IMG/VR virus record: IMGVR_UViG_3300031998_000008 | Coordinates: 1-64,000 of that record | Direction: 5' to 3' (one strand) | DNA from: a virus | Lineage: Duplodnaviria > Caudoviricetes | Length of the DNA stretch: 64,000 nucleotides | In this document: positions 1 through 24,575 of the stretch, piece by piece | How the letters are laid out: every line of letters begins with the position of its first letter | How positions within the stretch are numbered: the first letter of the stretch is position 1 | The notes under the pieces: generated by a model | What the model was told of the DNA's origin: nothing | Database searches by the model: none | What the model saw: the letters and a program-made list of their open reading frames with translations, nothing else | Position numbers and translations under genes: made by a program

Positions 1-4
1 TTAT

Positions 5-33
5 CAAACGTGTGAATTCAAAACACACGTTTG
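5..33. terminator. Hairpin CAAACGTGTG-9nt-CACACGTTTG, possible + strand intrinsic terminator
   Basis: Perfect 10-bp inverted repeat followed by a T-rich tract. Confidence 0.5.
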
Positions 34-81
34 TTTATTTTTTACATCATGGCACAATTCCACCACCTAAATATTAAAAAT

Positions 82-107
82 AAAACGCACATAAAGTGCG
101 TTTTTTT
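82..107. terminator. Hairpin AAAACGCAC-ATAAA-GTGCGTTTT, likely bidirectional terminator
   Basis: 9-bp inverted repeat flanked by A and T tracts, downstream of the 143..1180 gene. Confidence 0.6.
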
Positions 108-114
108 ATATAGG

Positions 115-135
115 TATGTGCGGATTCCGCACATA
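115..135. promoter_or_regulatory. Tight hairpin TATGTGCGG-ATT-CCGCACATA, candidate DGR target-recognition stem-loop
   Basis: Perfect 9-bp stem with 3-nt loop, 7 nt after the stop codon of the lectin-fold gene, no U-tract. Confidence 0.55.
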
Positions 136-142
136 TATTAAA

Positions 143-1180
143 TTAAAAACTGAAAGGAGAAACAACCACCTTAGCAAACGGCCTCACATAGAGGGAGTAG
201 GACTTATAACGGTAGTCGACATAGCCACTGTCCATAGACACATACCTCGCATGAGCATCAGAGTACTCAGAAGAGGACCAATAAAAGTCAGCGACAAAAG
301 CATGACCGCCAGTAAGCCCTGTTAATGAACTATTTATAGCACCTTTTCTTGGGACAACATAAGCCAATTCTCCACATGCAGGTAAATACCATTGAAGACC
401 GTTGTCATTTGTTTGGTGATAATTAAAACAATCAATTGCAGCCGTATAATATGTAAGTTCTGAATTTTTTAATATCTCTGTATTCTCAATGCCATTGAAA
501 TCAAGTAATGCATTATGCTCATTCGGATAAAAATAATCTTCGTATTTCGAACCATCATTTGCATACGGAGATGGTATATACCTTCCAGCATAATCTCCAT
601 CAACTATTGCTGTTGACCAATATGCAGTACCTGTATCACTATTACATGTAACAGCAGTAAATGAATCAGAAGGTAAAAACGCATAATCAGTAAGACTTGT
701 TGTTCCACCATCTGTGTTGTCATACTTAGTAACCATATTAAGATTTTTAAGTTCAGGAATATTCAAAGAAGTTCCTTGCTTATCTATTGACCATTGTCTT
801 GTTCCAATATCGCTCAACGCACATATTCTAACAGTTCCATCATTCAAATGGTCAGAAGGCACAACAACAACACCAACAGGATATTTTGTTCCGGTAAGAG
901 CATTATAATCAGATTTTGAACAAAGCTTTATATTTGTACCATCGTAATAACAAACCCACCCAGCTTTTATATCTCTCATTGAAATATGCTCAGGTGATAA
1001 AATGCTATCAGAATTATAATGAATACTTGGTTTTACACTACTAACAGTACCGGCTGAATCATAAGGAAACGTATCATGATATTCATTTTTCACCAATGAA
1101 ACATTCGGTGAATACATGTTATTACCATGTGCAAATGCATCATATTCGGATTTTTCATTAAATTTTTTAAGATATTTCAT
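143..1180 (-). CDS. C-type lectin fold (DUF1566/Lcl-like) protein, putative DGR target
   Basis: C-terminal WYLPACGEL...YWSSSE...YVRPF signature; start taken at MKYLKKFNE (1180), alternative ATG at 1204. Confidence 0.8.
   Translation of the reverse strand: MKYLKKFNEKSEYDAFAHGNNMYSPNVSLVKNEYHDTFPYDSAGTVSSVKPSIHYNSDSILSPEHISMRDIKAGWVCYYDGTNIKLCSKSDYNALTGTKYPVGVVVVPSDHLNDGTVRICALSDIGTRQWSIDKQGTSLNIPELKNLNMVTKYDNTDGGTTSLTDYAFLPSDSFTAVTCNSDTGTAYWSTAIVDGDYAGRYIPSPYANDGSKYEDYFYPNEHNALLDFNGIENTEILKNSELTYYTAAIDCFNYHQTNDNGLQWYLPACGELAYVVPRKGAINSSLTGLTGGHAFVADFYWSSSEYSDAHARYVSMDSGYVDYRYKSYSLYVRPFAKVVVSPFSF
146..319 (-). repeat. Putative DGR variable repeat (VR) and 3' flank
   Basis: 58 consecutive codons with no A at position 3; NNY codons at positions where a DGR template would carry AAY; higher GC than the rest of the gene. 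No template repeat seen in window. Confidence 0.7.
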
Positions 1181-1212
1181 AATAAATATTTTTTTTAAAA
1201 ACATTATATATT

Positions 1213-1221
1213 ATAAATAGT
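1213..1221 (-). promoter_or_regulatory. ACTATTTAT putative late-promoter motif
   Basis: Same 9-mer sits just upstream of several gene starts. Confidence 0.55.
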
Positions 1222-1230
1222 CTTAAAAGC

Positions 1231-1260
1231 AAAAAGGCCATACTCTCGTATGACCTTTTT
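1231..1260 (-). terminator. Intrinsic terminator after dnaK
   Basis: AAAAAGGCCATA...TATGACCTTTTT inverted repeat with A/T tracts. Confidence 0.65.
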
Positions 1261-1281
1261 ACTTTGAAGCGTATGTTATTG

Positions 1282-3171
1282 TTATTTACCCGCAAACGGG
1301 TTGTTTTTGAATGTATCAGTGAATCCACTAATGTCAAATGGATTTGGACCTTGCTGTCCACCTTGTGCTTGCTGAGCCGATTTATACATTTCTTCAGCAA
1401 TAGGATTCCAAAGTGTTTCAAGTTCCTTTTTCTTTTCTTCAACTTTATCCAAATCACCGTTTTTGACTTCTTCATGCAAAGAATCAATCATTTTCTTGAT
1501 TTCTTCTTTTTGTTCATCTGTTATCTTATCTGAAGGCATTTCTTTCATTGATTTTTCAATCCAGAACCCAAATGCATCGGCCTCATTCAATTTATCCGCT
1601 TTTTCTTTTGCTTTTTTATCTTCATCAGCATGTTCCTCAGCTTCTTTTTTCATTCTTTCAATGTCTTCATCACTCAATGATGATTTTGATTCGATTTTTA
1701 TGTGTTGTTCTTTCCCTGTAGCCTTATCGGTTGCAGAAACAGACATAATTCCATTTGAATCAATATCAAAAGTAACTTCAATTTGCGGAACATTTCTTGG
1801 AGCCGGCATAATTCCATCAAGAGTGAACATTCCAATAATCTTATTGTCACGTATCATTGGTCTATTACCATGACCAACAATAATAGTAACAGCTGGTTGA
1901 TTGTCTTCAGCAGTAGTGAAAATTTGGCTTCTCTTACATGGAATAGTAGTATTAGCCTCAATAATTGGGGCCATAACACCACCCATTGTTTCAATACCCA
2001 AAGTCAAAGGAGTGACATCAAGCAAAAGAATATCTTGCTTATCGCCACTAAGAATAGAGCCTTGAACGGCAGCACCAAGTGCAACAACCTCATCAACATT
2101 AACGTTCTTAATCAATGGTATATTGAATGCCTTTGTCAATTCATCTTGAACCTTAGGAATTCTTGTTGAACCACCAACCAAAAGAATACCAGTAATGTCA
2201 TTTGTTGAAATTCCTGCTTTCTTGATTGCTTCTTTACCAAGGTTAATAACCTTTTCAATTTCTTTGTCAATGAGTTGTTCAAACTTAGCTTTTGTCAAAC
2301 TCATTACTAAGTGTTTTGGCTGACCGTTTTCTGCTGTAATATAAGGAAGATTTATTTCAGTTGATGTTGAGTTTGAAAGTTCAATCTTTGCTTTTTCGGC
2401 TGCTTCGATAATTCTCTGCATTGCCATTGAATCTTTACTCAAGTCAACACCCTCTTTATCCTTGAAATCATTTACAATGTAATCTGAAACAAGTTTATCA
2501 AGGTCACTACCTCCACAGTAAACATCGCCATTTGAAGCCTTAATTTCAACAACATTATCTGAAATATCAGCAATTGAGAAATCAAGGGTTGAACCACCAT
2601 AGTCAACGACCATGTAAATTCCGCCTTTTTCCATGTCAATATTTGAAGCTAAAATAGCGGCAGTTGGTTCTGCAACAATTCTTCTAACATTAAGACCTGC
2701 AATTTCGCCGGCTTTCTTAGTTGCTTCACGTTGTGCATCATTAAAATATGCAGGAACCGTGATAACTGCATCTGTAACAGTTTCACCAAGATAATTCTCG
2801 GCAGTTGCTTTCATCTTGCTAAGAATCATTGCGGATAATTCCTCAGGAGTATATTCCCTGTCATTGATTTTAACTCTTGGCTGACCGTTTACGTTTACCA
2901 CATCATATTGAACATGTTTTATGTTGTCTTTAATTTCATCATAGGTTCCACCCATGAAACGTTTAATAAGTACAACAGTACCCTTTGGATTTGTAACTGC
3001 TTGTCTTTTAGCAGCATCACCTACTTTTCTCTCGCCATCTTTTGAAAAAGAAATAACTGATGGGGTTGTTCTATGACCCTCATCATTAACAATAATTGTC
3101 GGTTGATTACCTTCCATGATAGCAACCTCTGACAAAGTGCTACCAAGGTCAATACCTATAATTTTTCCCAT
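1282..3171 (-). CDS. dnaK: Hsp70 chaperone DnaK (phage-encoded, divergent)
   Basis: GIDLG, TTPSV, AVITVPAYFNDAQR, EPTAA, GGSTRIP, DVTPLTLGIET, PQIEVTFDID motifs. Confidence 0.97.
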   Translation of the reverse strand: MGKIIGIDLGSTLSEVAIMEGNQPTIIVNDEGHRTTPSVISFSKDGERKVGDAAKRQAVTNPKGTVVLIKRFMGGTYDEIKDNIKHVQYDVVNVNGQPRVKINDREYTPEELSAMILSKMKATAENYLGETVTDAVITVPAYFNDAQREATKKAGEIAGLNVRRIVAEPTAAILASNIDMEKGGIYMVVDYGGSTLDFSIADISDNVVEIKASNGDVYCGGSDLDKLVSDYIVNDFKDKEGVDLSKDSMAMQRIIEAAEKAKIELSNSTSTEINLPYITAENGQPKHLVMSLTKAKFEQLIDKEIEKVINLGKEAIKKAGISTNDITGILLVGGSTRIPKVQDELTKAFNIPLIKNVNVDEVVALGAAVQGSILSGDKQDILLLDVTPLTLGIETMGGVMAPIIEANTTIPCKRSQIFTTAEDNQPAVTIIVGHGNRPMIRDNKIIGMFTLDGIMPAPRNVPQIEVTFDIDSNGIMSVSATDKATGKEQHIKIESKSSLSDEDIERMKKEAEEHADEDKKAKEKADKLNEADAFGFWIEKSMKEMPSDKITDEQKEEIKKMIDSLHEEVKNGDLDKVEEKKKELETLWNPIAEEMYKSAQQAQGGQQGPNPFDISGFTDTFKNNPFAGK

Positions 3172-3224
3172 ACTTGTTTTAATTTTTAAAAATTATAAAT
3201 TTTTAACGACAAAAGTCAATAGTT

Positions 3225-3419
3225 TTACACTTCCATCTCTTGTCTGTCGTATTCACAATAAGGGATGTCTTCGTCTTCGTATCCGTCATTTTTCCATTCG
3301 TCATACTCCCAATCAACTTCATGCTTCATAAAGTCAATTGCATCCTTGTATTCGTTCAATGACATTATATGGTAATAATCGCCTGAGTCTGTTTTTAGAA
3401 AATAAGAATATACTTTCAT
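3225..3419 (-). CDS. Small acidic hypothetical protein
   Basis: 64-aa ORF in operon-like spacing. Confidence 0.6.
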   Translation of the reverse strand: MKVYSYFLKTDSGDYYHIMSLNEYKDAIDFMKHEVDWEYDEWKNDGYEDEDIPYCEYDRQEMEV

Positions 3420-3434
3420 TTAATTGATTTTTAT

Positions 3435-3890
3435 TTACTTATTTAAGCACTCTTTAACAATAGTGCTAATGGTTTTTCCATCTGAGCGGCTACCAAGTTC
3501 AGCAATTGCCAATTTCATAACATTACCCATATCTTTGATTGAACTTGCTCCAACCTCACAGATTATGCTTTTAACAATTGCCTCAACTTCTTCATTTGTT
3601 GCTTGTTTTGGCAAATATTCACTAATGATATTCTTTTCGCCCAATTCCTTGTTGGCTAAATCTTCCCTACCATTTGCCAAATAAATTTCAGCAGTTTCTT
3701 CTCTTTCCTTGCACATCTTCTGCATGATTTTCAATACAGAATCATCGTTGAATTCATCTTCTTTGAACCCAGGTGCCGTTTTTGCTTTCATGATTTCTGC
3801 CTTAACAAGTCTTAAAGTCTCAACTTTAACTGTGTTTTTTTCCTTTGTAGCGGCAAGCAAGTCGCTTTGAATTAATTCCTCTAATTTCAT
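3435..3890 (-). CDS. GatB/YqeY domain protein
   Basis: GREDLANKE..EYLPKQ..GASSIKDMGNVM..DGKTIS; start at MKLEEL. Confidence 0.9.
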   Translation of the reverse strand: MKLEELIQSDLLAATKEKNTVKVETLRLVKAEIMKAKTAPGFKEDEFNDDSVLKIMQKMCKEREETAEIYLANGREDLANKELGEKNIISEYLPKQATNEEVEAIVKSIICEVGASSIKDMGNVMKLAIAELGSRSDGKTISTIVKECLNK

Positions 3891-3944
3891 AACGATATAA
3901 TATTTGTTAAATACTAACATACAAAAAAAATATTTTAAAACAAA

Positions 3945-4154
3945 TTACCATAAATCGTAATCTGTAATATTTTTTTCTTCACCACATAAATTACATCTAA
4001 TCATAACACCAGTTCCAATTGATGATGGCGTAAAACAGTAAGTTATATGCCCTCCAATAGTTGTTGGATGTTTTCTTGCGCATTCCAAATGTTTTTCTTC
4101 AAATGCCTCGGAATCTTTTATTTCATTTTCACTAAGTTTGAATTCGGTTATCAT
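3945..4154 (-). CDS. Small hypothetical protein with CxxC
   Basis: FTPSSIGTGVMIRCNLCG; 4-nt overlap with upstream ORF. Confidence 0.7.
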   Translation of the reverse strand: MITEFKLSENEIKDSEAFEEKHLECARKHPTTIGGHITYCFTPSSIGTGVMIRCNLCGEEKNITDYDLW

Positions 4155-4594
4155 TTTTCGTATCTATCTTTATAATCAATCAAGTTTGACACACATTTTT
4201 CGAATTCAGAATCAAACTCTTCTTTTGTTATTATCTTTATTTTGCTTATTTCTTGTATAAGGTTGTCAATATCCATGGATGATATTTGAAGTTCGTACCA
4301 ACATGACCAATAGAAGTTTGTTGCATCATCATATCCAGTAAACTCACCATCAAATCCATGCCCAACTATGGAATATGCATATTCGACTCCATATTTTGAC
4401 CGATAAAATTTATCATCTGTCACATAGTTTACATGCACAAAATGTGTTGTTTCGTATGTGTCTGTATATTTTATATATTTATCTTCAAGATTAAGGTTTA
4501 GGCTTTCAAGTTTTTTCTTTTTTATTTCATCGTTAATTTTGCTAATCCTATCACGTAATTCTTTTTGCTCCTTTTCTAATTCTTCTATTGTCAT
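4151..4594 (-). CDS. Hypothetical protein with N-terminal coiled coil
   Basis: 147-aa ORF in same-strand operon. Confidence 0.7.
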   Translation of the reverse strand: MTIEELEKEQKELRDRISKINDEIKKKKLESLNLNLEDKYIKYTDTYETTHFVHVNYVTDDKFYRSKYGVEYAYSIVGHGFDGEFTGYDDATNFYWSCWYELQISSMDIDNLIQEISKIKIITKEEFDSEFEKCVSNLIDYKDRYEK

Positions 4595-5393
4595 TATTCT
4601 TTAATATTATTGTTTTATTATATATTCTATTCCAAATACTTGTTTTATAATCAATTTTAATTTCTGAATTTCCTGTTGTCGTTAGATACGTAACATCTTC
4701 AAGTTTTATATCATCAAGGCCATGGTGATTTATATTAACGTAAGCCAATGCACAAATCAAAGAGTCACATGCATCGAAATTCTCCTTTTTAAGCTCACCC
4801 TTTTTATTATAGACCCATTCAATTTCTCCATCATGGTATAGTTCGTTTACCATGTTCATCATTACTGTTTTCTTGTCAACATCAAATGGATATGAGCCAA
4901 ATAAAACGGCTTTATTCTCTTCAATAGCCTTTTTAACGTGTTTCAACGGGTATTCTTCACCTTTTTTATTGTATTTTCTGATTGATACGAGTTCCGGAAA
5001 TGAATATAACCTGGCATCGTATGATGATATAAAGTTAGGAACTACTTCAAGTACCCTATAAATCGCTTCTGAAATCATTCCATTAAATCTAAGCAATGTA
5101 GCAACAGTATTAACATTGTTTGATGATAACAATGGCTCTTCAATAACAACATCTGTTATGTCGAAATTTTCCAATATTTCAGGCAAGAATTGGTCTTCAA
5201 ATATTTGTTTCTTCAAGAACAATGATTCTATGCCTTTTATTTTGCTTGGGACCTTTGGCGTTTTATGCCCTATATAAAGCAATTCAGGCTTGTCACTATC
5301 TCCATTGTCTTTAACAACAGAAACACCTATGCAAGCGGTACTTATGTCTAATCCAAGTATGATTCTTGGGTATATGTTTTCTTGATTTTCCAT
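4551..5393 (-). CDS. RuvC-like Holliday junction resolvase
   Basis: ILGLDIST, VVIEEP and ENFDACDS acidic motifs; start re-placed at MENQENIY because the longer call is antisense to 5494..5892. Confidence 0.8.
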   Translation of the reverse strand: MENQENIYPRIILGLDISTACIGVSVVKDNGDSDKPELLYIGHKTPKVPSKIKGIESLFLKKQIFEDQFLPEILENFDITDVVIEEPLLSSNNVNTVATLLRFNGMISEAIYRVLEVVPNFISSYDARLYSFPELVSIRKYNKKGEEYPLKHVKKAIEENKAVLFGSYPFDVDKKTVMMNMVNELYHDGEIEWVYNKKGELKKENFDACDSLICALAYVNINHHGLDDIKLEDVTYLTTTGNSEIKIDYKTSIWNRIYNKTIILKNNDNRRIRKGAKRIT

Positions 5394-5493
5394 TAATATT
5401 ATAATTTTAATTAAAAATAGTGAAAATACTTCTTTTTGTAAATAAAATTTGGTATTTAAGCATATTTTTTGTATATAAATAAAAAAATAGTAC

Positions 5494-5892
5494 ATGTCAC
5501 ATAGCATATCAATAAACGATAAATTATATAGTGAGATAAAAGAATATTGCGATTTAAATAAAATTAAGGTTTCTTCTTTTTGTGAAGAAATGTTAAAAAA
5601 AGCCTTGAATGAGGCAAAATATGGTGATATTCCTTTTGGCCGTATAGGGGGTGAGCAGATAAATGAGCGCAAAAATGAGCAGATAAATGAGCCAAATGAA
5701 AGTTCTTCATCCAACAATGCGGTTGAGCCTGTTGAAAAAGAACCTCAATATCTATCTCCATTAGCAGCAGAGTATAAAAAAGAAACGCCTATAATTGACA
5801 AGGAAAAAGCCCAAAAGATTACTGACATGGCAATTAATGGGATAAACCATGAAAAAAATAAAAAACCGAGAAAAACAAGAGTTTTAAATTAA
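5494..5892 (+). CDS. Hypothetical protein with possible N-terminal ribbon-helix-helix DNA-binding motif
   Basis: MSHSISINDKLYSEIKEYCDLNKIKVSSFCEEML strand-helix-helix pattern. Confidence 0.55.
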   Translation: MSHSISINDKLYSEIKEYCDLNKIKVSSFCEEMLKKALNEAKYGDIPFGRIGGEQINERKNEQINEPNESSSSNNAVEPVEKEPQYLSPLAAEYKKETPIIDKEKAQKITDMAINGINHEKNKKPRKTRVLN

Positions 5893-8264
5893 TGAATAAG
5901 AAAATTGACATTGGCCAAAATGCAAAAGTTTGTATTGTTTGGCACGTACCGGCAACCGACTATTCAAAGGAAAAGGAAAAGAGCATCATTTCATTGATGG
6001 CAAAGAAGTATGGTATTTCTCCTAAGAATATTAAGGTTGAGCCAAAATATATCACTAATGGCGTTAGTGGCGTTATGGTTCCTGAATCTGTACAAAACAT
6101 AAACGACCCAAAGTTTATGCAGGAACTTTTCAAAATTTATATTGCAGAAAATAAAATAGAAGACATTGACTTCAATGAAATCATTAAGATTGACAGCCAA
6201 ATTAATTCACTTATTGATTTCACACTATATAACAAAGCAAAGAGTTATTCAATCAAATGGGTAAAGTGGGGCAACTTTCTTTCATACGGTCCTGATAACT
6301 TCTTTGATTTTACAAAATTACATGGATTGGTGTTGTTGAATGGTGAACCGGCAAATAAAAGTGGTAAATCTACATTTGCATATGACATTTTGCACTTCTT
6401 ATTGTTTGGAAAAACTAACACAGATAAGGCCAAGACCTTAGGAGAATTGTTTAACAATTATCTACCTGATGAAAGGGTTCTAACTGTTGAAGGATGCATC
6501 AATATTGATGGTGAAGACTATATAATCAAAAGAACTTTAACAAGGCCCGCTTCAGGAAAGAAAACAAAGACACCAACAAATAAAGTTGAATACTACAGAG
6601 TATTTGCTGATGGTAGCGAAGAATTGCTTTCAGATGAAAATCTGCAAGGAACGTCTGCAAAGGAAACAAGTGCTATTATTAAAGAGGCCCTTGGTAATGA
6701 AAGTGATTTTGATTTAATTATTAGTGCTAATGCAAAGGACCTTGATAGTCTTATTTCATTGACAGAAACAGAGAAAGGAAGACTTCTTTCAAGATGGATT
6801 GGATTGTCTGTTATTGAAGATAAAGATGTTAAGGCAAGGGAAAAGTGGAACAAGGAAATTTCAATTGGCCGTTATTCTGACATGTACAACAAAGTACAAT
6901 TGGAGGAAGATATTGAAAAATTAAATGAACAAAAAGTATCATTATCAGAGGATATTGAAAAGCATAAAAAGGTTATAGAAGAGTGCGACAAGAAGATTGA
7001 AGAATTTAACAAAACAAGAGATATTTTATTGTCTTCAAAGCAACAAGTGGACCCAAATTTACTTCAAGTAAATGTTACTACACTTCAAGCAAAGATTAAC
7101 ACACTTATTGAAACGGGAAAGAAAAAGGGCGAAGACCTTAAATATTTTGAATCTGAATTGAAAAAATATACGGATGTTGAGTTTTCTGAGGAAGAATATA
7201 AGAAATTAACAGATGAAAAATCAGAATTAGTATCAAAAACATCATCACTCAGGACAAACATAACCAATTTAAAAGATATGAATGTTAAATTGGAAAAGGC
7301 TGAATATTGTCCTACATGTAAGAGAAAACTTGACAATGTTGATAATTCAGGTGTTATTGCCGAAAACAAAAAGAAAATAGAAGAATACACACAGGAAGGT
7401 ATTGCGGCAAAGAAGAGACTTGATGAAGTTGAAAAGTTAATTGCTGACATAGACGCAAAGAGAAAACAGTCACAGGAAAAATCAAAACTTGAACTTAAAA
7501 TTGCAACTATTAAATCAGACATAGCGAACATGAGGGCCGATTATAAGGAGCAAGACCAACTATTGAAAGATGTTAATAAGAGCAAGGATACAATTACTAA
7601 GAATGGAGAGATTGATGCTCAGGTAAATGTTATTAACACAAACATTAGAACTGAGGATTCAATCAAGCGTTCTTCAACGACAACAATTTTCGACAATGAA
7701 AAGGAAATTTCAAGAATTACAGAAACAATTGCGCAAAAAAATAGTTTTATTGTTAAAATTGATGAAGAAAGAAAGACTGAAAAATATTGGAAGCTCTATT
7801 TACAAATGATTGGTAAGGATGGAATTAGTAAAATGGTTCTTAGAAATACACTTCCAATTATCAATGCAGAACTTAATAGGCTTCTCAGTGATGTCTCTGA
7901 CTTTGAAATAGAAATCACAATGAACGAGAAAAGCGATATTGATTTCTTACTAATTAGAGATGATATTAAGACAAGACTTTCAGCTGCTTCTGGACTTGAA
8001 AAAACTCAGGCATCATTGGCATTACGTGTTGTTCTTGGCAGATTGTCTAAATTATCAAAGCCACCGTTTATTCTTCTTGATGAAGTCTTAGGTACTGTTG
8101 CAAAAGAAAACTATGATGACATGAAAAAACTTTATGACAAGATTACTGAATATTATGACTTTATTTTGCACATAACGCATTTAACTGAGATTGTTGATTG
8201 GCATAATTGTGTTGTTACAGTTAAAAAGGAAAACAATATTTCAAGTATTAAGTCAAGTTATTAA
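5892..8264 (+). CDS. SbcC/Rad50/T4 gp46-like recombination ATPase
   Basis: Walker A NKSGKST, zinc hook CPTC in coiled coil, ASGLEK signature, Walker B ILLDE, H-loop HITH. Confidence 0.92.
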   Translation: MNKKIDIGQNAKVCIVWHVPATDYSKEKEKSIISLMAKKYGISPKNIKVEPKYITNGVSGVMVPESVQNINDPKFMQELFKIYIAENKIEDIDFNEIIKIDSQINSLIDFTLYNKAKSYSIKWVKWGNFLSYGPDNFFDFTKLHGLVLLNGEPANKSGKSTFAYDILHFLLFGKTNTDKAKTLGELFNNYLPDERVLTVEGCINIDGEDYIIKRTLTRPASGKKTKTPTNKVEYYRVFADGSEELLSDENLQGTSAKETSAIIKEALGNESDFDLIISANAKDLDSLISLTETEKGRLLSRWIGLSVIEDKDVKAREKWNKEISIGRYSDMYNKVQLEEDIEKLNEQKVSLSEDIEKHKKVIEECDKKIEEFNKTRDILLSSKQQVDPNLLQVNVTTLQAKINTLIETGKKKGEDLKYFESELKKYTDVEFSEEEYKKLTDEKSELVSKTSSLRTNITNLKDMNVKLEKAEYCPTCKRKLDNVDNSGVIAENKKKIEEYTQEGIAAKKRLDEVEKLIADIDAKRKQSQEKSKLELKIATIKSDIANMRADYKEQDQLLKDVNKSKDTITKNGEIDAQVNVINTNIRTEDSIKRSSTTTIFDNEKEISRITETIAQKNSFIVKIDEERKTEKYWKLYLQMIGKDGISKMVLRNTLPIINAELNRLLSDVSDFEIEITMNEKSDIDFLLIRDDIKTRLSAASGLEKTQASLALRVVLGRLSKLSKPPFILLDEVLGTVAKENYDDMKKLYDKITEYYDFILHITHLTEIVDWHNCVVTVKKENNISSIKSSY

Positions 8265-8287
8265 TAAAGGGTATTTTTGATGAATGA

Positions 8288-9004
8288 ATGCGTAAGAAAA
8301 AGAAAAAAATCAATGATTTTGAGAGAAGTTCAATTGATTATTTTAAGGAGATAAATAACCTATCTCCATTATCAAGAGAAGAAGAGTATTCTTTGTGGGA
8401 GAAGTACAAAAAAAATAATGACTTGTCAGCACGTGACAAAATTATCAAATCAAATTTGAAGTTTGTAGCAAGCGTAGCAAAACCATATATCGGAATGGGA
8501 CTATCTTATTCCGATTTAATTGCTGAAGGAAACCTTGGTCTTATAAAGGCCCTTGATAAGTTTGACTATGAAAAGGGCTATAAGACTATAAGTTATTCTG
8601 TTTGGTGGATTAGACAGACAATATTGGAAGCATTGAACAAAAGAAACATAATCAAAGGCGATGAATTGGCTCCGTCTGAAAAGTTCGATGATGAAAACAA
8701 CACTGATACTGATGGCGAAGAAATTGTTTCAGAAAAATACATTGATACTTTCAATTTTGATAATCTAAAGAGAAACGATGAATCTTCAGTCGTAAAAGAT
8801 TTGATGGATTCATTGAATGAAAGGGAGAAAAAAGTTATCTCATCATACTTCGGCCTTGATTCAAAAGATGAAATGACGCTTGAGGAAATAGGGAATGAGA
8901 TGGGACTTACAAAGGAACGTATTAGACAAATAAAAGAGGGCGCTCTTAAAAAGTTGAGAACTGAAGCGCTTAAAAATTCAATAACATCAGAAACATTCAA
9001 ATAA
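8288..9004 (+). CDS. RNA polymerase sigma70-family factor (regions 1.2, 2, 4)
   Basis: NLKFVASVAK, DLIAEGNLGLIKALDKFD, WWIRQ, MTLEEIG..LTKERIRQI. Confidence 0.93.
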   Translation: MRKKKKKINDFERSSIDYFKEINNLSPLSREEEYSLWEKYKKNNDLSARDKIIKSNLKFVASVAKPYIGMGLSYSDLIAEGNLGLIKALDKFDYEKGYKTISYSVWWIRQTILEALNKRNIIKGDELAPSEKFDDENNTDTDGEEIVSEKYIDTFNFDNLKRNDESSVVKDLMDSLNEREKKVISSYFGLDSKDEMTLEEIGNEMGLTKERIRQIKEGALKKLRTEALKNSITSETFK

Positions 9005-9030
9005 AGGCGGTGATTATCACCGTCTTTTTT
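9003..9030 (+). terminator. Intrinsic terminator after sigma gene
   Basis: AAAGGCGGTGAT/ATCACCGTCTTTTTT stem plus U-tract. Confidence 0.75.
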
Positions 9031-9082
9031 GTTGATAATATTTCTTTTATCATTATATTTATGATAAATAAATGTAATTTTT

Positions 9083-9559
9083 ATGGCAAAACAGACGAAA
9101 AAGACAGAGGCAGAAAGCAAGCCTAAGAAAGCAAAAGATATAAAGGAAACACCTGAAAAGATAGAAGAACAAATTGAGAAGCAAATTGAAGAACAAGAAA
9201 ATACTGAAAATATTCAGGACATTTCTGAAATCAAGACAGATGTTAATCAAATAGAATCTTCAATCGAAGATGTTGATGTTAATCTTGAAACAAAAAACAT
9301 TGAGGATGAGATTGATGAATCAATCCAAAAGACAGTTGATGAATTAAAGGAAACAACTGACAAGATAAATGATTTTGAAAAATCACAAAAGGAATTCAAT
9401 GAAAACATTCAAAAGCATCCTGAGCAAGCAAAAGAGATTATCGAAAAAGAAATCAAACGCACTGAAAATCTAAAGAAGGATGTTGAAAAAATAATAAATT
9501 CCAACAAAAAGAACATAAGCATGACTTCTTGGTGGAATGGTATGGGTTATGACATGTAA
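9083..9559 (+). CDS. Acidic coiled-coil hypothetical protein
   Basis: E/K-rich heptads with aromatic C-terminal tail SWWNGMGYDM. Confidence 0.75.
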   Translation: MAKQTKKTEAESKPKKAKDIKETPEKIEEQIEKQIEEQENTENIQDISEIKTDVNQIESSIEDVDVNLETKNIEDEIDESIQKTVDELKETTDKINDFEKSQKEFNENIQKHPEQAKEIIEKEIKRTENLKKDVEKIINSNKKNISMTSWWNGMGYDM

Positions 9560-9561
9560 TT

Positions 9562-10098
9562 ATGGCAGAAAAGAAAATTGTTGGCTTCCAAGCAAAAGAA
9601 GAAGATTTCACAAGAAAAATGCTTGATAAAATAAGAAGCCTTGAAGAATCTACAAAACAGAACAAACAATCACTTAATGAAGAGGTTGAAAAAGGTGATG
9701 TTGCTGCTGATGGTATTGCAATAACAGATGACCCGATTTTTGGTCAAAATACATTAACAAATCAAATCCAACAATTCAGAACATCTGTTGAAAGCGGTGC
9801 TCAGTTCTCAAAGCCTGACAATGGTAATGTAAGTGAATCTCCACTTATTTATATGCCAAATGAAAATAACTTGATATTCAGTGGCGTAATTCCATGTTTG
9901 AACAACCTTAAATTCCAATTTAAATTAAGAACAAACACAGGCGATGGTTGTTTCTTAACAACAAACGGATTGGTTCTTAATGACAAGAACCTTGAAATTC
10001 TTAACAAGTTGTATGGATTCTATCAAAATTGGAAAGAACAATGGAATATGGAATCATCAACACTTGAACAAATGGCAAACAATATTAAAGAATCATAA
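9562..10098 (+). CDS. Hypothetical protein, possibly head-associated
   Basis: 178-aa ORF with SLNEE motif after an N-terminal leader. Confidence 0.7.
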   Translation: MAEKKIVGFQAKEEDFTRKMLDKIRSLEESTKQNKQSLNEEVEKGDVAADGIAITDDPIFGQNTLTNQIQQFRTSVESGAQFSKPDNGNVSESPLIYMPNENNLIFSGVIPCLNNLKFQFKLRTNTGDGCFLTTNGLVLNDKNLEILNKLYGFYQNWKEQWNMESSTLEQMANNIKES

Positions 10099-10121
10099 GA
10101 ATAATACAAGTTATTATAACC

Positions 10122-10150
10122 AAAAGTCAGCCTTAATTGGTTGGCTTTTT
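10122..10150 (+). terminator. Intrinsic terminator
   Basis: AAAAGTCAGCC-TTAATT-GGTTGGCTTTTT. Confidence 0.6.
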
Positions 10151-10160
10151 GTTTATTTAT

Positions 10161-10169
10161 ACTATTTAT
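10161..10169 (+). promoter_or_regulatory. ACTATTTAT putative late-promoter motif
   Basis: 24 nt upstream of ATG at 10194. Confidence 0.6.
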
Positions 10170-10193
10170 ATGTGAATAAATATACGGCTTAAT

Positions 10194-10442
10194 ATGTCAA
10201 AGAAGGTTATAATAAGTGAAGAAATGATGCAAACGCTCATTGCAAACCAAATTCTTGAGGAAAATGGTATAAACAAGAGTGATATTGTTTCTGCCGTTAA
10301 AGATGCTCTTAAAAATGACAACAGCATCAAAAACGACATGGAAAAGAAAGTACGTGCATTGGTTGCTTCATCAGTTAATACTTTGTTCAGAACATTATGG
10401 CAACGCCGTAATTTTTACGAAGACGAAATCAAAAGAGGGTAA
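10194..10442 (+). CDS. Small hypothetical protein
   Basis: KKVIISEE N-terminus resembling processed head proteins. Confidence 0.7.
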   Translation: MSKKVIISEEMMQTLIANQILEENGINKSDIVSAVKDALKNDNSIKNDMEKKVRALVASSVNTLFRTLWQRRNFYEDEIKRG

Positions 10443-10443
10443 T

Positions 10444-11520
10444 ATGAGTGATAAAGAAATGACACGTTATGCTTTCATATCTCATATGGAAGACTACATG
10501 AAGAAATTGTTAAAAGACCCATTAAAGGCCGATACTGATGATTTCTTGCATGGCTTTGGTATTGACGGCCCATCTGCTCTTAAAATGCTTATAACAAAAA
10601 CAGACCCCAATGATGATTACAGCGCAGTTGTCATAAGAAGTGAAAGAATAAAAGACAACGGTTATGATGAAGACGGAAAACGTAACAAAGACAGTTTTGA
10701 AGTAAAATATAAAATACCAAGAAAAGATTTTAAGAAAAAACTTAGAAATCTTTATGTTAATTTGTTTGAGCAAAATTTTGCAATGCCTAAAAAACTGGAC
10801 GAAGGCGCATGGGGCTATGGCATTTTGGATAGCGATAGCGCACTTGATATTCAAACTTCATTTGCCAAAATTTGTTTGAATGTTTTATGTAGTAAAGTTT
10901 TAAACGTTGAAAAACAGACAACTTATGATTATCAAGGGTTGTGGGCTAATGTTGGCGTGTTGGTTGATTTCTTGAAAAAATATAAAGACAATGAAATCCA
11001 ATTAACAGATGAATACACATACGCAATAAATGTTGTTAAAAAGGCTTTGTACATACTTTATAACGATGAAAATTGTGTATCAGCATGGTCAGAACCTGAT
11101 AAATTTAAATCAAGCCTCAAAAAAATTTATAAAGAGGTTTCTCTTTTGGAATACCAAAAGGATATTATGAATATTGATGGCCAAGAAACAACCCCACCAA
11201 TAAGGCCGGTTGTTCCGACAACTTCATTAAATGAAGACGGTGAGGGTGGTGCTGTTGGAGGTGGTGCTATGGATGGAATTGCAGGTGCTACATCAACAAG
11301 TTCAAGTGGCCAATACACAGTTCCTGTTTTCGGTAAACCAATAAAGAGAAAAAGTTTATATTTAACACAAGAACAAGTTGACTACATAAAAGAGGCAACT
11401 GCAACAAGCAATGTTGGCAATTACCAATATGATGTTCCTATGGGCTCTGATAATGATTTTTATAAAGAAACATTGGACCATAAAGATATAATGAAAAAAA
11501 GTTTTGAAGAGAACAAATGA
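10444..11520 (+). CDS. Multi-segment protein with internal DUF4259-like domain
   Basis: Start re-placed at MSDKEM, 1 nt after previous stop; internal GAWGYGILDSDSALD motif; Gly-rich tail. Confidence 0.7.
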   Translation: MSDKEMTRYAFISHMEDYMKKLLKDPLKADTDDFLHGFGIDGPSALKMLITKTDPNDDYSAVVIRSERIKDNGYDEDGKRNKDSFEVKYKIPRKDFKKKLRNLYVNLFEQNFAMPKKLDEGAWGYGILDSDSALDIQTSFAKICLNVLCSKVLNVEKQTTYDYQGLWANVGVLVDFLKKYKDNEIQLTDEYTYAINVVKKALYILYNDENCVSAWSEPDKFKSSLKKIYKEVSLLEYQKDIMNIDGQETTPPIRPVVPTTSLNEDGEGGAVGGGAMDGIAGATSTSSSGQYTVPVFGKPIKRKSLYLTQEQVDYIKEATATSNVGNYQYDVPMGSDNDFYKETLDHKDIMKKSFEENK

Positions 11521-11737: not shown

Positions 11738-12622
11738 ATGGAAAAGACATTTAAAGTGAGCGATTTAAAGAGGCTTATTTCTGAGAGTTCAAATGAGTTC
11801 AAGCCGGTTCTTGGACCAAATGTTGAAAAGGATAATAAGTCAAACAACGGCAAGGCTTACGATGATGCCAAAAAAATGGCTAAAGACTTCGATGGTGGCC
11901 TTGGAAAAGAGGTTGGCGGTCAACGTGCAAAGTACGAAAAAACCGATGCCAACAGAACAACTTTAGATTATACACCTGAAAACGCTAATGATTCTTATAG
12001 AAAAAGAGTAAAAGCACAAGCAGAAGGATATACATCTGAGGCTGAAAAAAATAATGGAATAGAAAAAGCTGCTGATTTTTCAGATAACGAAAACATCTAC
12101 AATGGGATTAAGAAATCAGGACAAGAATTGCATGATGACGAAGAAAGCATGAAGAAATCAGGGCTTCAGGCAAGAGAATGGCCTGACAAAGTTTTTGACA
12201 AAGAGGAAATGTATGAAAGCAAAGATGGTTTCGATATGAGACAAATGATTGATAGAATATCAAGTTTTGAATCAGGTCAAAAGCCAATCAATGAGCGCAA
12301 AAACATAAAAACTGTTTATTTTAAAAAGACAGAATTTTTAACTGAGGGCCATATGCTTTCAAGAATACCTGATGAATTCAAAAACGAAGGTAATACATTC
12401 AAGATGAAAGATAAAACAGGTAACGAATACTTGGTTGAATGGAGAGATAATAAGGGTGTTGTTATCGAACACAACAACAAACAAGGTTTCAATGAATCAA
12501 TCAACAGAATGAAAGACCTTTATTCATATTCATCAGAAGACACAAGAACAACATTAAACTCAAGGCTGAACGAAGACAACGACTTTAATTCAACTTTGAA
12601 TAACGCAAGAAAAATAAAATAA
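11738..12622 (+). CDS. Hypothetical, probably virion/head-associated protein
   Basis: 294-aa ORF with LISE, INE and LNE motifs. Confidence 0.7.
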   Translation: MEKTFKVSDLKRLISESSNEFKPVLGPNVEKDNKSNNGKAYDDAKKMAKDFDGGLGKEVGGQRAKYEKTDANRTTLDYTPENANDSYRKRVKAQAEGYTSEAEKNNGIEKAADFSDNENIYNGIKKSGQELHDDEESMKKSGLQAREWPDKVFDKEEMYESKDGFDMRQMIDRISSFESGQKPINERKNIKTVYFKKTEFLTEGHMLSRIPDEFKNEGNTFKMKDKTGNEYLVEWRDNKGVVIEHNNKQGFNESINRMKDLYSYSSEDTRTTLNSRLNEDNDFNSTLNNARKIK

Positions 12623-12642
12623 AAAAGAAAGGGTTGGATTAA

Positions 12643-13335
12643 ATGGAAAACAATAAGAAAATTGAACAAGTAAACACTACTTTATCATGGGTTGAAAAAA
12701 CATTTGGATTTATAAAGAAAATGGGTTTTCAAAATTTACTAATAACACTAATGATGATTTTTGTTGTCTCTGTTGTTGGCCAGCTTGTTTTTAATCCTGA
12801 GGGACTTGTTAAAAAGTATGAAAGAATTGTAAGCGAACAGCATACAGAATCTGTTATAAAGAGGATGAATAACGAACCTGCAATTAGAGAAAACCTTATA
12901 AAATTAAAAGCAGAATTAAATGCTGACAGGGTTTACGTTTTGGAAACCCATAATGGAGGCGCTAATTTAGCAGGATTACCATTTTTATATGTTGATTTGA
13001 CTTATGCAGAGCCTAAGAGTGCTTATCAATGGCTTGAAAGTGAATATAAGAATGTAAGACTTTCAAGATACCCATGGGCTACTGAACTTTATCAAAAGAA
13101 TTTTTACTCTGAAAATATTGATTATTTGGAACAATTGGACCCTGAATTATATTACAGGCTGAAAAATGAAAATGTAGAATATATGGCAGCTATAATGATG
13201 TATGGAAGTTATAATCCTTCAGGAGTTTTAGGCGTGGTTTATACATCAAAGGACAGCATTCCAAAAAGAGAAGAAATTCAAAGAATATTGATGAAATACA
13301 GTACTGTTTTAGCAGCATTGTTTAACAATGAGTAG
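12643..13335 (+). CDS. Single-TM protein with GAF-like C-terminal domain (holin T-like architecture)
   Basis: Hydrophobic LLITLMMIFVVSVVGQLVF, then LNADRVYVLETHNG...GVLGVVY. Confidence 0.5.
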   Translation: MENNKKIEQVNTTLSWVEKTFGFIKKMGFQNLLITLMMIFVVSVVGQLVFNPEGLVKKYERIVSEQHTESVIKRMNNEPAIRENLIKLKAELNADRVYVLETHNGGANLAGLPFLYVDLTYAEPKSAYQWLESEYKNVRLSRYPWATELYQKNFYSENIDYLEQLDPELYYRLKNENVEYMAAIMMYGSYNPSGVLGVVYTSKDSIPKREEIQRILMKYSTVLAALFNNE

Positions 13336-22681: not shown

Positions 22682-24574
22682 TTATCCTTCTAACTCTAAT
22701 TTAGGCTCAAACAAACACAACTTCAAATCACCGCTACCATCATACTCAGCGCCATCTATTGTGTAAATGTATTTTTCGTTGTATTTTTTTATTTTTATTG
22801 GTATAAAAAGATTTTCTATAAAGTTTTCAACTGTAAGAGGCTCATTTGGCATGATAATCATTGGAAATGTTTTACCATTACCCGCATGGTTAAATTCAAC
22901 TTTCATATAAATAGTTTTTTCAGTATTTCCCTCAGGTATATCATCGGAAAATAAATAAATATTGAACCCCTCTGAACATCTTTCTTTGTCATATTCATTT
23001 GTTATTGTAAGCGTAGTATCAAGCCTACATCCAACGTCATTGTTTTCACAAAAAACAACCTTTACATTGTCATTTCCTTCAGCGACTTCATTTATTATAA
23101 CTTCATCGCCATCAAGATTATCTTCCATGAATGCACGTTGCTTTAAAAATTTACAGAATAATGCCGTACTGTCAAGGAATACAGTTGAATAATACAACAA
23201 CTTTTGTTCTATTGGGTCATTTGAATTATAAAATGAAAATCTGAAAAATGATTTACTGACTTTACTCTTCCTATAGAAAATATCGTTGTCTGTGAAATTA
23301 AGGAATCCAATTAAATCAGATATTGTCCTGCAACTACTATTCGTAAAGGCACTAACAGGACCGCCAGTAAACCCATTCCAATAAACGTCATAGTTGTTAT
23401 CCGTATCAATATACCACCCATCATAGTATAAATTACCTGACGTTGCAAGTGTATTTGTATTATTGTCAGGGTCAACATAAACCCTTTTCCTGAAATGGTT
23501 ATATATTGTGATTGAAGTTATTGGAATATATCTGTCATTATTTTCTTTTTCATATGGAGAATATTTAACACGCTCCATATCAATAAATTCAGGAATTAAT
23601 GATTCTTCAATTTTTTTAGCAAACGTATCACTAAAATAATCTTCAACTCCTAAATTAGATTCGTTTGCATCATATGATAAGCCAAGACTAACAGAATAAT
23701 ATGACCTGTCAATGTAAAATTTATTTATGTTTACACCATCATCAACATATTTTACAGTAGTTGTGTTATGGAATGAATCAAACCATTTATCACCATAAAA
23801 ATGTATATGCTTTATCGGATTACCATGCGAATCAAGTTCTATTGGTTCACCTTTAGGGCCCTTTTCTATCGTGTAATAGTAAAATGGATTATACTTAAAT
23901 TCTATGTATGCCGCTTCTTTGCATTCAATCTCATTAAAATCTGTTAATATGAAGTCATTTGTGCTTTCACTGTCAGGAAAAAAGTTATAATGCCTTGTTT
24001 CAACATAATCATATCCCTTTCCACAAGTATCATCTTTTTCAATATCACCAATACAATCGCTTTTGACAAATTCAGATGTTAAAGATGAATTATTGGATGG
24101 TATTCCCATATCAACCCTATACTTGTTTAATGGATATATTCCAGTGTATGTGGCCAATAAATTTCCATTTATATCCTTAAAGTAAACTTCTTGGTCTGAT
24201 GCCGCATCTAAATCTTGTCCAAACAAATAATGTCTTGTCTTACATGATATTATGTAATATGAATTGTTTTCATTATATTTTAAATTGAAAAATTGGCCTG
24301 TTAAGTTTATTCTAACAACGCCAGGCAATGTTGCGTGTATTATGTGATTTGAATCTTCGTATTTAACAACAGAAAAATCGGTAAATGTAGTGTTTCCGTT
24401 ATTAACACACATTACGGACCTATTAAAATATATATAATCTCCCTCTTCGATAAAATAACAAGTTTTATCGTTTAATTTGATTACAAGTTCACCGTCTTTT
24501 TCAATAACGTATTCATAATCTAAATCATCAAACCCATAAACAGGTGTCCTGCGGTTTATTTTAACAGTTTCCAT
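22682..24574 (-). CDS. Structural hypothetical protein
   Basis: 630 aa in tail operon. Confidence 0.6.
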   Translation of the reverse strand: METVKINRRTPVYGFDDLDYEYVIEKDGELVIKLNDKTCYFIEEGDYIYFNRSVMCVNNGNTTFTDFSVVKYEDSNHIIHATLPGVVRINLTGQFFNLKYNENNSYYIISCKTRHYLFGQDLDAASDQEVYFKDINGNLLATYTGIYPLNKYRVDMGIPSNNSSLTSEFVKSDCIGDIEKDDTCGKGYDYVETRHYNFFPDSESTNDFILTDFNEIECKEAAYIEFKYNPFYYYTIEKGPKGEPIELDSHGNPIKHIHFYGDKWFDSFHNTTTVKYVDDGVNINKFYIDRSYYSVSLGLSYDANESNLGVEDYFSDTFAKKIEESLIPEFIDMERVKYSPYEKENNDRYIPITSITIYNHFRKRVYVDPDNNTNTLATSGNLYYDGWYIDTDNNYDVYWNGFTGGPVSAFTNSSCRTISDLIGFLNFTDNDIFYRKSKVSKSFFRFSFYNSNDPIEQKLLYYSTVFLDSTALFCKFLKQRAFMEDNLDGDEVIINEVAEGNDNVKVVFCENNDVGCRLDTTLTITNEYDKERCSEGFNIYLFSDDIPEGNTEKTIYMKVEFNHAGNGKTFPMIIMPNEPLTVENFIENLFIPIKIKKYNEKYIYTIDGAEYDGSGDLKLCLFEPKLELEG

Positions 24575-24575
24575 A

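Follow-up and report, generated by a model that had tools for sequence, protein, structure and literature searches.

A variable repeat at the contig end of a large-phage genome and evidence for the diversity-generating retroelement to which it belongs

The window analysed here is a stretch of 64,000 nucleotides, bases 1-64000 of an incomplete 207,929-bp IMG/VR record (56% complete according to CheckV). At its left end lies a gene on the minus strand, target gene 1 (143..1180), whose last codons are free of third-position adenine and are followed by a hairpin. The original prediction, made from the letters alone, read this gene end as the variable repeat (VR) of a diversity-generating retroelement (DGR), called it an orphan with no reverse transcriptase (RT) or template in 64 kb, and supposed a cassette immediately to the left of the window, at a distant genomic site or provided in trans. 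Two questions follow from this locus: is the gene end a VR, and where is the element that would diversify it?

Composition and fold of target gene 1

Target gene 1 was analysed as an ORF of 345 aa starting at the ATG at position 1180; initiation at another ATG farther upstream (1204) would lengthen it to 353 aa. Third-position adenine was counted separately in the final 58 sense codons (319..146, minus strand) and in the remaining gene. The counts were 0/58 and 90/295 (30.5%) respectively, as had been predicted, and the codons TTA ACA stand immediately upstream of the depleted stretch. The chance of 0/58 is (1-0.305)^58 = 7e-10, a value uncorrected for the post-hoc choice of the stretch. Total adenine in 319..146 was 14% compared with 34% in the remaining gene, and G+C was 47% compared with 32%. 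The window has 42 stop-to-stop frames of 150 codons or more; across them, these 58 codons formed the longest run free of third-position adenine, and the runner-up had 34. This second run lies on the minus strand in a 635-codon frame at about 22685-24589.

The C-terminal part of the protein (about 95 residues) matched the Pfam family Lcl_C (PF07603, formerly DUF1566) at 3.4e-08 and 34.2 bits, where the cut-off is 34.9. A paralogue described below, target 2, scored 35.8 bits and so passed this cut-off. An AlphaFold model of target 1, built on an alignment of 62 homologues, had a mean pLDDT of 86. Pfam and the model together divide the protein into a beta-rich N-terminal body and a C-terminal Lcl_C/DUF1566 domain of the C-type-lectin fold. 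The modelled C-terminal domain was matched by the C-terminal domain of Legionella Lcl (8q4e_A; target-normalised TM-score 0.57, rmsd 2.0 Å over 97 columns, 23% identity), and the entire model by the Bacteroides fimbrial protein 4eps (E 1e-5). These fold matches point to a target 1 that consists of a predicted adhesin-like body with a C-type-lectin-fold domain at its end.

Relatives of target 1 in the databases numbered 207 proteins, many of them on contigs of 330-375 kb and several per contig. When the whole target 1 protein was searched against viral contigs, no relative was returned; related contigs were reached via its protein cluster. The Hsp70 gene of the phage (629 aa, window 1282-3171) adjoins target 1. 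In the JGI assembly L009, Hsp70 (4613-6501) was split by the gene calling into two overlapping parts (344 and 299 aa), and the sole gap between L009 and the window may represent a frameshift in this gene.

Template repeat, reverse transcriptase and accessory gene in sister assemblies

Related assemblies were compared with window positions 1-11,180. To judge by sample labels and run numbers, the metagenomes probably come from rumen or gut. Identity was 99.27% for L004, 99.78% for L009 and 97.2% for L006-L008. Four assemblies (L004, L006, L007 and L010) read past the end of the window, with gene order alike in all of them: Hsp70, target 1, a 74-aa ORF, target 2, a 153-aa gene, approximately 320 bp of non-coding DNA containing a template repeat (TR), and a 411-aa RVT_1 protein. 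TR, accessory gene and RT were located 1.5-2.4 kb beyond the first base of the window in these sister assemblies. The cassette of a DGR usually lies beyond the 3' end of the target gene. The supposition of a cassette just left of the window was borne out; those of a remote cassette or one acting in trans were not supported. From the near-identical assemblies we infer that TR, RT and target 2 are also present in the exact genome of the window.

Target 2 encodes a 346-aa Lcl_C protein with 58% identity to target 1 and carries a second variable repeat, VR2. The 74-aa ORF between the targets (L004:11237-11461) is conserved, overlaps the start of target 2 by 14 nt, and had no family match in Pfam, NCBIfam or PHROGs. 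VR1 and VR2 differ in L004 and L010. In the target 2 genes of L006 (12086-12689; P0132) and L007 (11131-11734; P0136), the last ~250 nt including the VR are the same as in target 1 of the same scaffold. This identity probably results from assembly collapse; gene conversion between the tandem targets is the other explanation.

The TR repeats the 3' end of the target over 167 nt and is situated in non-coding DNA (L004:13252-13418). Its variable codons are AAT or AAC and it encodes ...ADNYWSSSEYSDANARNVNMNNGNVNNNYKSNSNYVRPF.... A template of the form N-N-N-N-K-N-N-N-N-Y-V-R-P had been predicted; this proved partly right, the actual TR reading ...N-V-N-N-N-Y-K-S-N-S-N-Y-V-R-P. In the window, 167 nt on the minus strand (136..302) are homologous to this TR in an ungapped alignment and constitute VR1. 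The segment originally proposed was therefore a VR, with its left edge placed about 17 nt too far out, the homology beginning at 302 and not at 319. The mutable part of VR1 occupies 192..288 (minus), measured from the first to the last adenine position seen varying, and the TR has 12 AAY codons here. The remaining 3' part (136..191, minus) is invariant. Its position corresponds to the IMH and it includes the stop codon TAA (145-143).

VR1 of the window and TR differed at 20 positions, 17 of them TR adenines and 3 of them fixed differences at the 3' end; the TR used in this comparison came from assemblies 97-99.3% identical to the window and not from its own record. A copy differing from the gene end only where the copy has A, as the original prediction had envisaged, was thus found in the sister assemblies (17/17 for the window in the first 150 nt). 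The comparison was extended to 7 distinct VRs, each against the TR of its own lineage: VR1 of the window, L004, L006, L007, L008 and L009, plus VR2 of L004. VR2 of L006 and L007 was excluded, being identical to VR1 and probably a product of assembly collapse. All mismatches in the first 150 nt (106/106) fell on TR adenines, and 27 of the 39 adenines varied. The TRs of L004, L010 and L012 were identical. Between lineages, TRs were either identical or had 2 differences, which lay at non-variable positions.

The same relation was found in a more distant relative, L019, whose target is 49% identical. Here 15/15 VR-TR mismatches were at adenines, and the order target, 151-aa gene, TR, RT describes a single-target DGR. 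In L019 (1-10004) the target is preceded by a row of large genes (618, 841, 285, 1601 and 413 aa) with no Pfam matches; this row could be a tail or baseplate module. In the lineage of the window it is Hsp70 that precedes the targets.

In its 54 codons the TR contains a single third-position adenine (TCA), and the VR of the window has C there. The adenine-purged look of the gene end arises because the TR avoids third-position adenine and because mutagenesis strips many adenines from first and second positions. Third-position adenine depletion together with a hairpin after the stop codon can thus flag a DGR target from raw sequence when the remaining element is missing.

The comparison with TR also bears on a reading without any retroelement, in which local codon bias, a GC-richer horizontally acquired segment or positive selection on a binding loop would account for the gene end. 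The segment does have 47% G+C against 32% in the gene, which is the pattern such a reading would use. It would have to accommodate, however, that 106/106 differences fall on the adenines of a nearby non-coding repeat, that the 17 mismatches of the window would all fall on adenines by chance (39/150) with a probability of about (0.26)^17 = 1e-10, and that a DGR-type RT adjoins this repeat. Its probability is virtually nil. Codon bias and horizontal transfer as causes of the composition shift were rejected on the adenine-specific TR comparison.

The final 56 nt of the VR/TR homology never vary. The three fixed differences between VR and TR lie at 149 (VR T, TR C) and 144-143 (VR AA, TR GG) and were the same in all copies of VR1 and VR2; the stop codon TAA of the VR accordingly reads TGG in the TR. 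By analogy, these fixed 3' differences correspond to the IMH/IMH* distinction of the Bordetella phage element, and their role here is putative.

The RT is encoded by an intact reading frame of 411 aa that starts 24 nt past the TR. RVT_1 was matched at 1.1e-19. The best solved relative was 8ub7_A (3.1e-22), from an entry titled 'Diversity-generating retroelement (DGR) ribonucleoprotein reverse transcriptase' of Bordetella phage (BPP-1); a group II intron maturase was matched at 5e-06. The protein contains the motifs LPIGNLTSQ and YVDD. The motif [I/L/V]GxxxSQ marks the RTs of DGRs. The search for a DGR-clade RT that the original prediction had proposed therefore led, in the sister assemblies, to an adjoining protein that appears from its sequence to be of this type.

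The accessory protein Avd is a basic four-helix-bundle pentamer present in about 74% of DGRs. A search for Avd had also been proposed, and gave a divided result: the 153-aa gene is in the avd position and its product has a weak fold match, but no sequence match. No match to the 153-aa protein was obtained in Pfam, NCBIfam, PHROGs or PDB sequences. A homologue search with the protein returned just 3 clusters, and the model was built on this thin alignment of 3 sequences. The model (pLDDT 68) shows four long helices, and the structures closest to it in fold were all of the Avd family: 2gsc, 2rld, 4dwl (Avd) and the Avd chains B-E of 8ub7, with target-normalised TM-scores of 0.63-0.79 and weak E-values (5.6e-3 at best). 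Typical Avd proteins are basic (Wu et al., PMC5758913); the 153-aa protein, with a pI of 7.5, is not. Its modelled fold makes it a probable, unproven, Avd analogue.

Hairpin, shared repeat unit and the end of the contig

A hairpin or cruciform at 115..135 (minus) begins at the first base past the TR homology. It reads, from 135 to 115, TATGTGCGG-AAT-CCGCACATA, with a 3-nt loop and a stem of 9 perfect pairs, 5 of which are G-C. Folding as ssDNA gave -9.3 kcal/mol (z = -5.7), and 0/200 shuffles were as stable. The predicted perfect 9-bp stem with 3-nt loop was confirmed by this folding, and its predicted place downstream of the VR was likewise correct: the hairpin starts directly after the VR, follows both VR1 and VR2 (in L010, and at the start of contig L012 downstream of VR2), and is absent after the TR. 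At the same place in L019 there is a 7-bp stem with a 3-nt loop GAA, in which pairing is preserved through two compensatory pair changes (C-G to T-A and G-C to A-T).

Folding of window 60-160 gave a second structure at about 75..103 (minus), a stem resembling an intrinsic terminator (AAACGCAC/GTGCGTTT) with a T-run. VR, hairpin, terminator and a further 55 bp together make up a unit of ~310 bp (1..310, minus) that is repeated after target 2. The unit is supported by blastn of the window against L004, L006 and L007, and in L004 corresponds to repeat families D1 and D5. The 55-bp element (window 1-55; L004:11126-11180 and 12595-12649) is 100% identical after both targets. It includes a 9-bp inverted repeat (AAACGTGTG ... 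CACACGTTT) that encloses a 9-nt loop, and both the duplicated unit and the contig end with this element. In L010 the terminator region after each VR (3731-3800 and 5110-5180) is shortened unlike in all other assemblies, probably through path mixing in the repeat.

Only 142 bp separate the stop codon of target 1 from the end of the record. The window record and L008 end at the very last base of the ~310-bp unit, and L005 and L009 end inside it. A 367,140-bp contig encoding the identical protein apparently ends here too, as judged from its gene list. Five assemblies end 55-142 bp from the stop codon. The contigs that stop in or at the repeat comprise three megahit-style contigs, the IMG/VR record and, apparently, the 367-kb contig. 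Sample ERZ27279894 yielded a contig that stops after VR1 and a separate one that starts at the hairpin following VR2.

No TR-like copy and no RVT_1 was found in the 64-kb window or in the whole 207,929-bp record. The absence on which the word orphan was based is therefore real and extends to the whole record; the word itself is inappropriate, since the contig breaks at a repeat. The 7.2 kb that follow target 1 in L004 were also searched for in the 207,929-bp record, and only the gene itself, paralogous similarity and the 55-bp repeat were found.

These results are relevant to a target that is orphaned in truth, with VR1 served by a cassette in the missing 44% of the genome or in trans. Such a target would agree with the lack of TR and RT in the 208-kb record, and other DGRs with remote targets have been described (Wu et al., PMC5758913). 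Yet each assembly that passes through the junction has the cassette 1.5-2.4 kb away, the flanks of the window are 99.3% identical to L004, and the repeat common to target 2 finishes precisely where the window does, as would be expected of an assembly break. We regard a remote or trans-acting cassette as extremely unlikely. On the sequences compared, the apparent orphan is best explained as a repeat-induced assembly break and not as biology: the window would lack the cassette because assembly stopped at the ~310-bp repeat common to the 3' ends of both targets.

VR/TR and VR/VR repeats break metagenomic assemblies and thereby generate apparent orphan targets. For this reason DGRs will be undercounted, above all in large phages, wherever a survey demands that RT and VR share a contig.

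Hypervariability, proposed mechanism and relation to known elements

Clustering of target 1 at 90% identity gave 11 variants from different assemblies. The first ~300 residues were nearly identical, and the variants differed almost only at ~16 positions within aa 306-338. The invariant scaffold around these sites is YWSSSEYS.A.AR.V.M..G.V...YKS.S.YVRPFAKVVVSPFSF. Homologues invariant across this segment would have spoken against a VR; the 11 variants differ precisely there. The target 2 cluster contained 7 variants with the same pattern, 2 of which (L006 and L007) carry the 3' end of target 1 and are probably assembly chimeras.

Window and L009 were compared over 7,696 bp. Of the 17 differences, 16 lay within the 99-nt mutable stretch and a single one in the remaining 7,597 nt, so that the VR exceeds its flanks in rate of change more than 1000-fold. 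To judge from these sequences, there are signs of recent DGR activity, the diversity being seen between samples.

A fossil VR, diversified in the past by a DGR that is now inactive and retaining its adenine depletion as a relic, could draw on this same point, as the evidence of diversity comes from between samples and not from within one population. Against a relic stand the 16/99 VR positions that differ between genomes with 1/7,597 elsewhere, the intact RT frame with YVDD, and a TR that is conserved and still rich in adenine. An inactive element is considered very unlikely.

The preferred reading is of an element with signs of recent activity. Window 136-302 (minus) is almost certainly VR1 of a DGR in a phage of ~370 kb, with the gene order from Hsp70 through target 1, the 74-aa ORF, target 2 (VR2), the 153-aa gene and TR to the RT, a mechanism like that of BPP-1, and a cassette lost from the record to an assembly break. 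The predicted DGR variable repeat in a gene of the C-type-lectin fold is in this respect upheld by the TR comparison, the RT and the Lcl_C fold.

Following the model of Bordetella phage BPP-1, the TR would be transcribed, and RT and accessory protein would copy the TR RNA into cDNA with misincorporation opposite template adenines. The cDNA would then replace VR1 or VR2. It would be directed there by the invariant 3' segment and the hairpin, the latter being present at the VRs only, so that information would flow from TR to VR. The 12 AAY codons of the TR would become NNY codons, which specify 15 amino acids and no stops. This would allow ~15^12 = 1e14 variants of the putative ligand-binding face of the lectin-fold domain.

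Both target proteins are likely determinants of host or ligand recognition.

The closest point of reference is the BPP-1 DGR (mtd - avd - TR - brt). In both elements the VR is at the 3' end of a gene of the C-type-lectin fold, the TR lies between accessory gene and RT, VR-TR differences are adenine-specific with AAY codons at the variable sites, and an invariant 3' segment carries VR-specific bases. Both also have a GC-containing inverted repeat downstream of the VR but none after the TR (PMC3240598), and the BPP-1 RT (8ub7_A) is the closest solved sequence relative of the RT found here. The elements differ in that there are two tandem targets here and one in BPP-1, and that these targets are of the Lcl_C/DUF1566 type and not of the Mtd type. 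Furthermore, the hairpin loop here has 3 nt (AAT) where that of BPP-1 is a 4-nt GRNA loop, the invariant 3' segment is AT-rich where BPP-1 has (GC)14, the accessory protein (153 aa, pI 7.5) has no detectable sequence similarity to Avd, and the genome is that of a phage of ~370 kb.

Retrohoming of BPP-1 requires the hairpin downstream of the VR (Guo et al., PMC3240598). Phage DGR hairpins have GC-rich stems of 7-10 bp and 4-nt GRNA loops, and are located 4-34 bp from the VR (Guo et al., PMC3240598). The stem described here fits this class, but its 3-nt loop (AAT; GAA in L019) and zero spacing differ from it. A role of the present hairpin in retrohoming would be analogous.

The Legionella pneumophila DGR (target LdtA) and targets of 'category d / CLec2' (DUF1566, DUF823, Fib_succ_major) are alike in that the VR overlaps a lectin domain of the DUF1566/Lcl_C type, and in having the target upstream of an accessory gene-TR-RT series (architecture B; Wu et al. 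2018, PMC5758913). In Legionella the element is carried on the chromosome and acts on a surface lipoprotein, whereas the targets here are phage proteins adjoining a phage Hsp70. Multi-target cassettes make up about 15% of DGRs (Wu et al. 2018, PMC5758913). The DGRs of gut Bacteroides phages (Hankyphage; siphoviruses of B. uniformis, PMC8143477) are also phage-borne, diversify putative ligand-binding proteins of the lectin fold and occur in host-associated microbiomes; unlike the ~370 kb genome here, they come mostly from temperate phages with genomes of the usual size. DGRs recorded from gut viromes number in the tens of thousands (PMC8241571).

DUF1566-type lectin targets, two-target cassettes and the order avd-TR-RT were known earlier (Wu et al., PMC5758913; Ye, PMC4159848). 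The mechanism is the known one, and the peculiarities are minor: a large-phage host, a divergent non-basic accessory protein and a hairpin loop of 3 nt. A limited literature search, which is no proof of novelty, found no paper specifically on the DGRs of jumbo phages. The locus adds a two-target DGR with signs of recent activity to a phage lineage of ~370 kb.

A broader proposal would be a DGR sub-lineage that is divergent and confined to phages of ~330-375 kb from animal gut or rumen samples. It would be characterised by a non-basic accessory protein with an Avd-like fold, a hairpin with a 3-nt loop, and a large family of Lcl_C paralogues, some of them far from any RT yet depleted in adenine (L018). 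We consider this rather unlikely. If it were true, one cassette might diversify many dispersed targets. On the same proposal, targets placed beside Hsp70 and sigma-factor genes instead of tail genes might be something other than classical receptor-binding tail fibres.

The L018 gene (10001-10963; P0013) is a distant paralogue, 36% identical, on a 374,316-bp contig of another large phage. No RT was found within 10 kb of it; the genes nearby include a TnpB-like gene and a DNA methylase. It may represent a DGR target, either a remote one or one of the past. Third-position adenine in its last 60 codons was 0.10, compared with 0.37 in the remaining gene.
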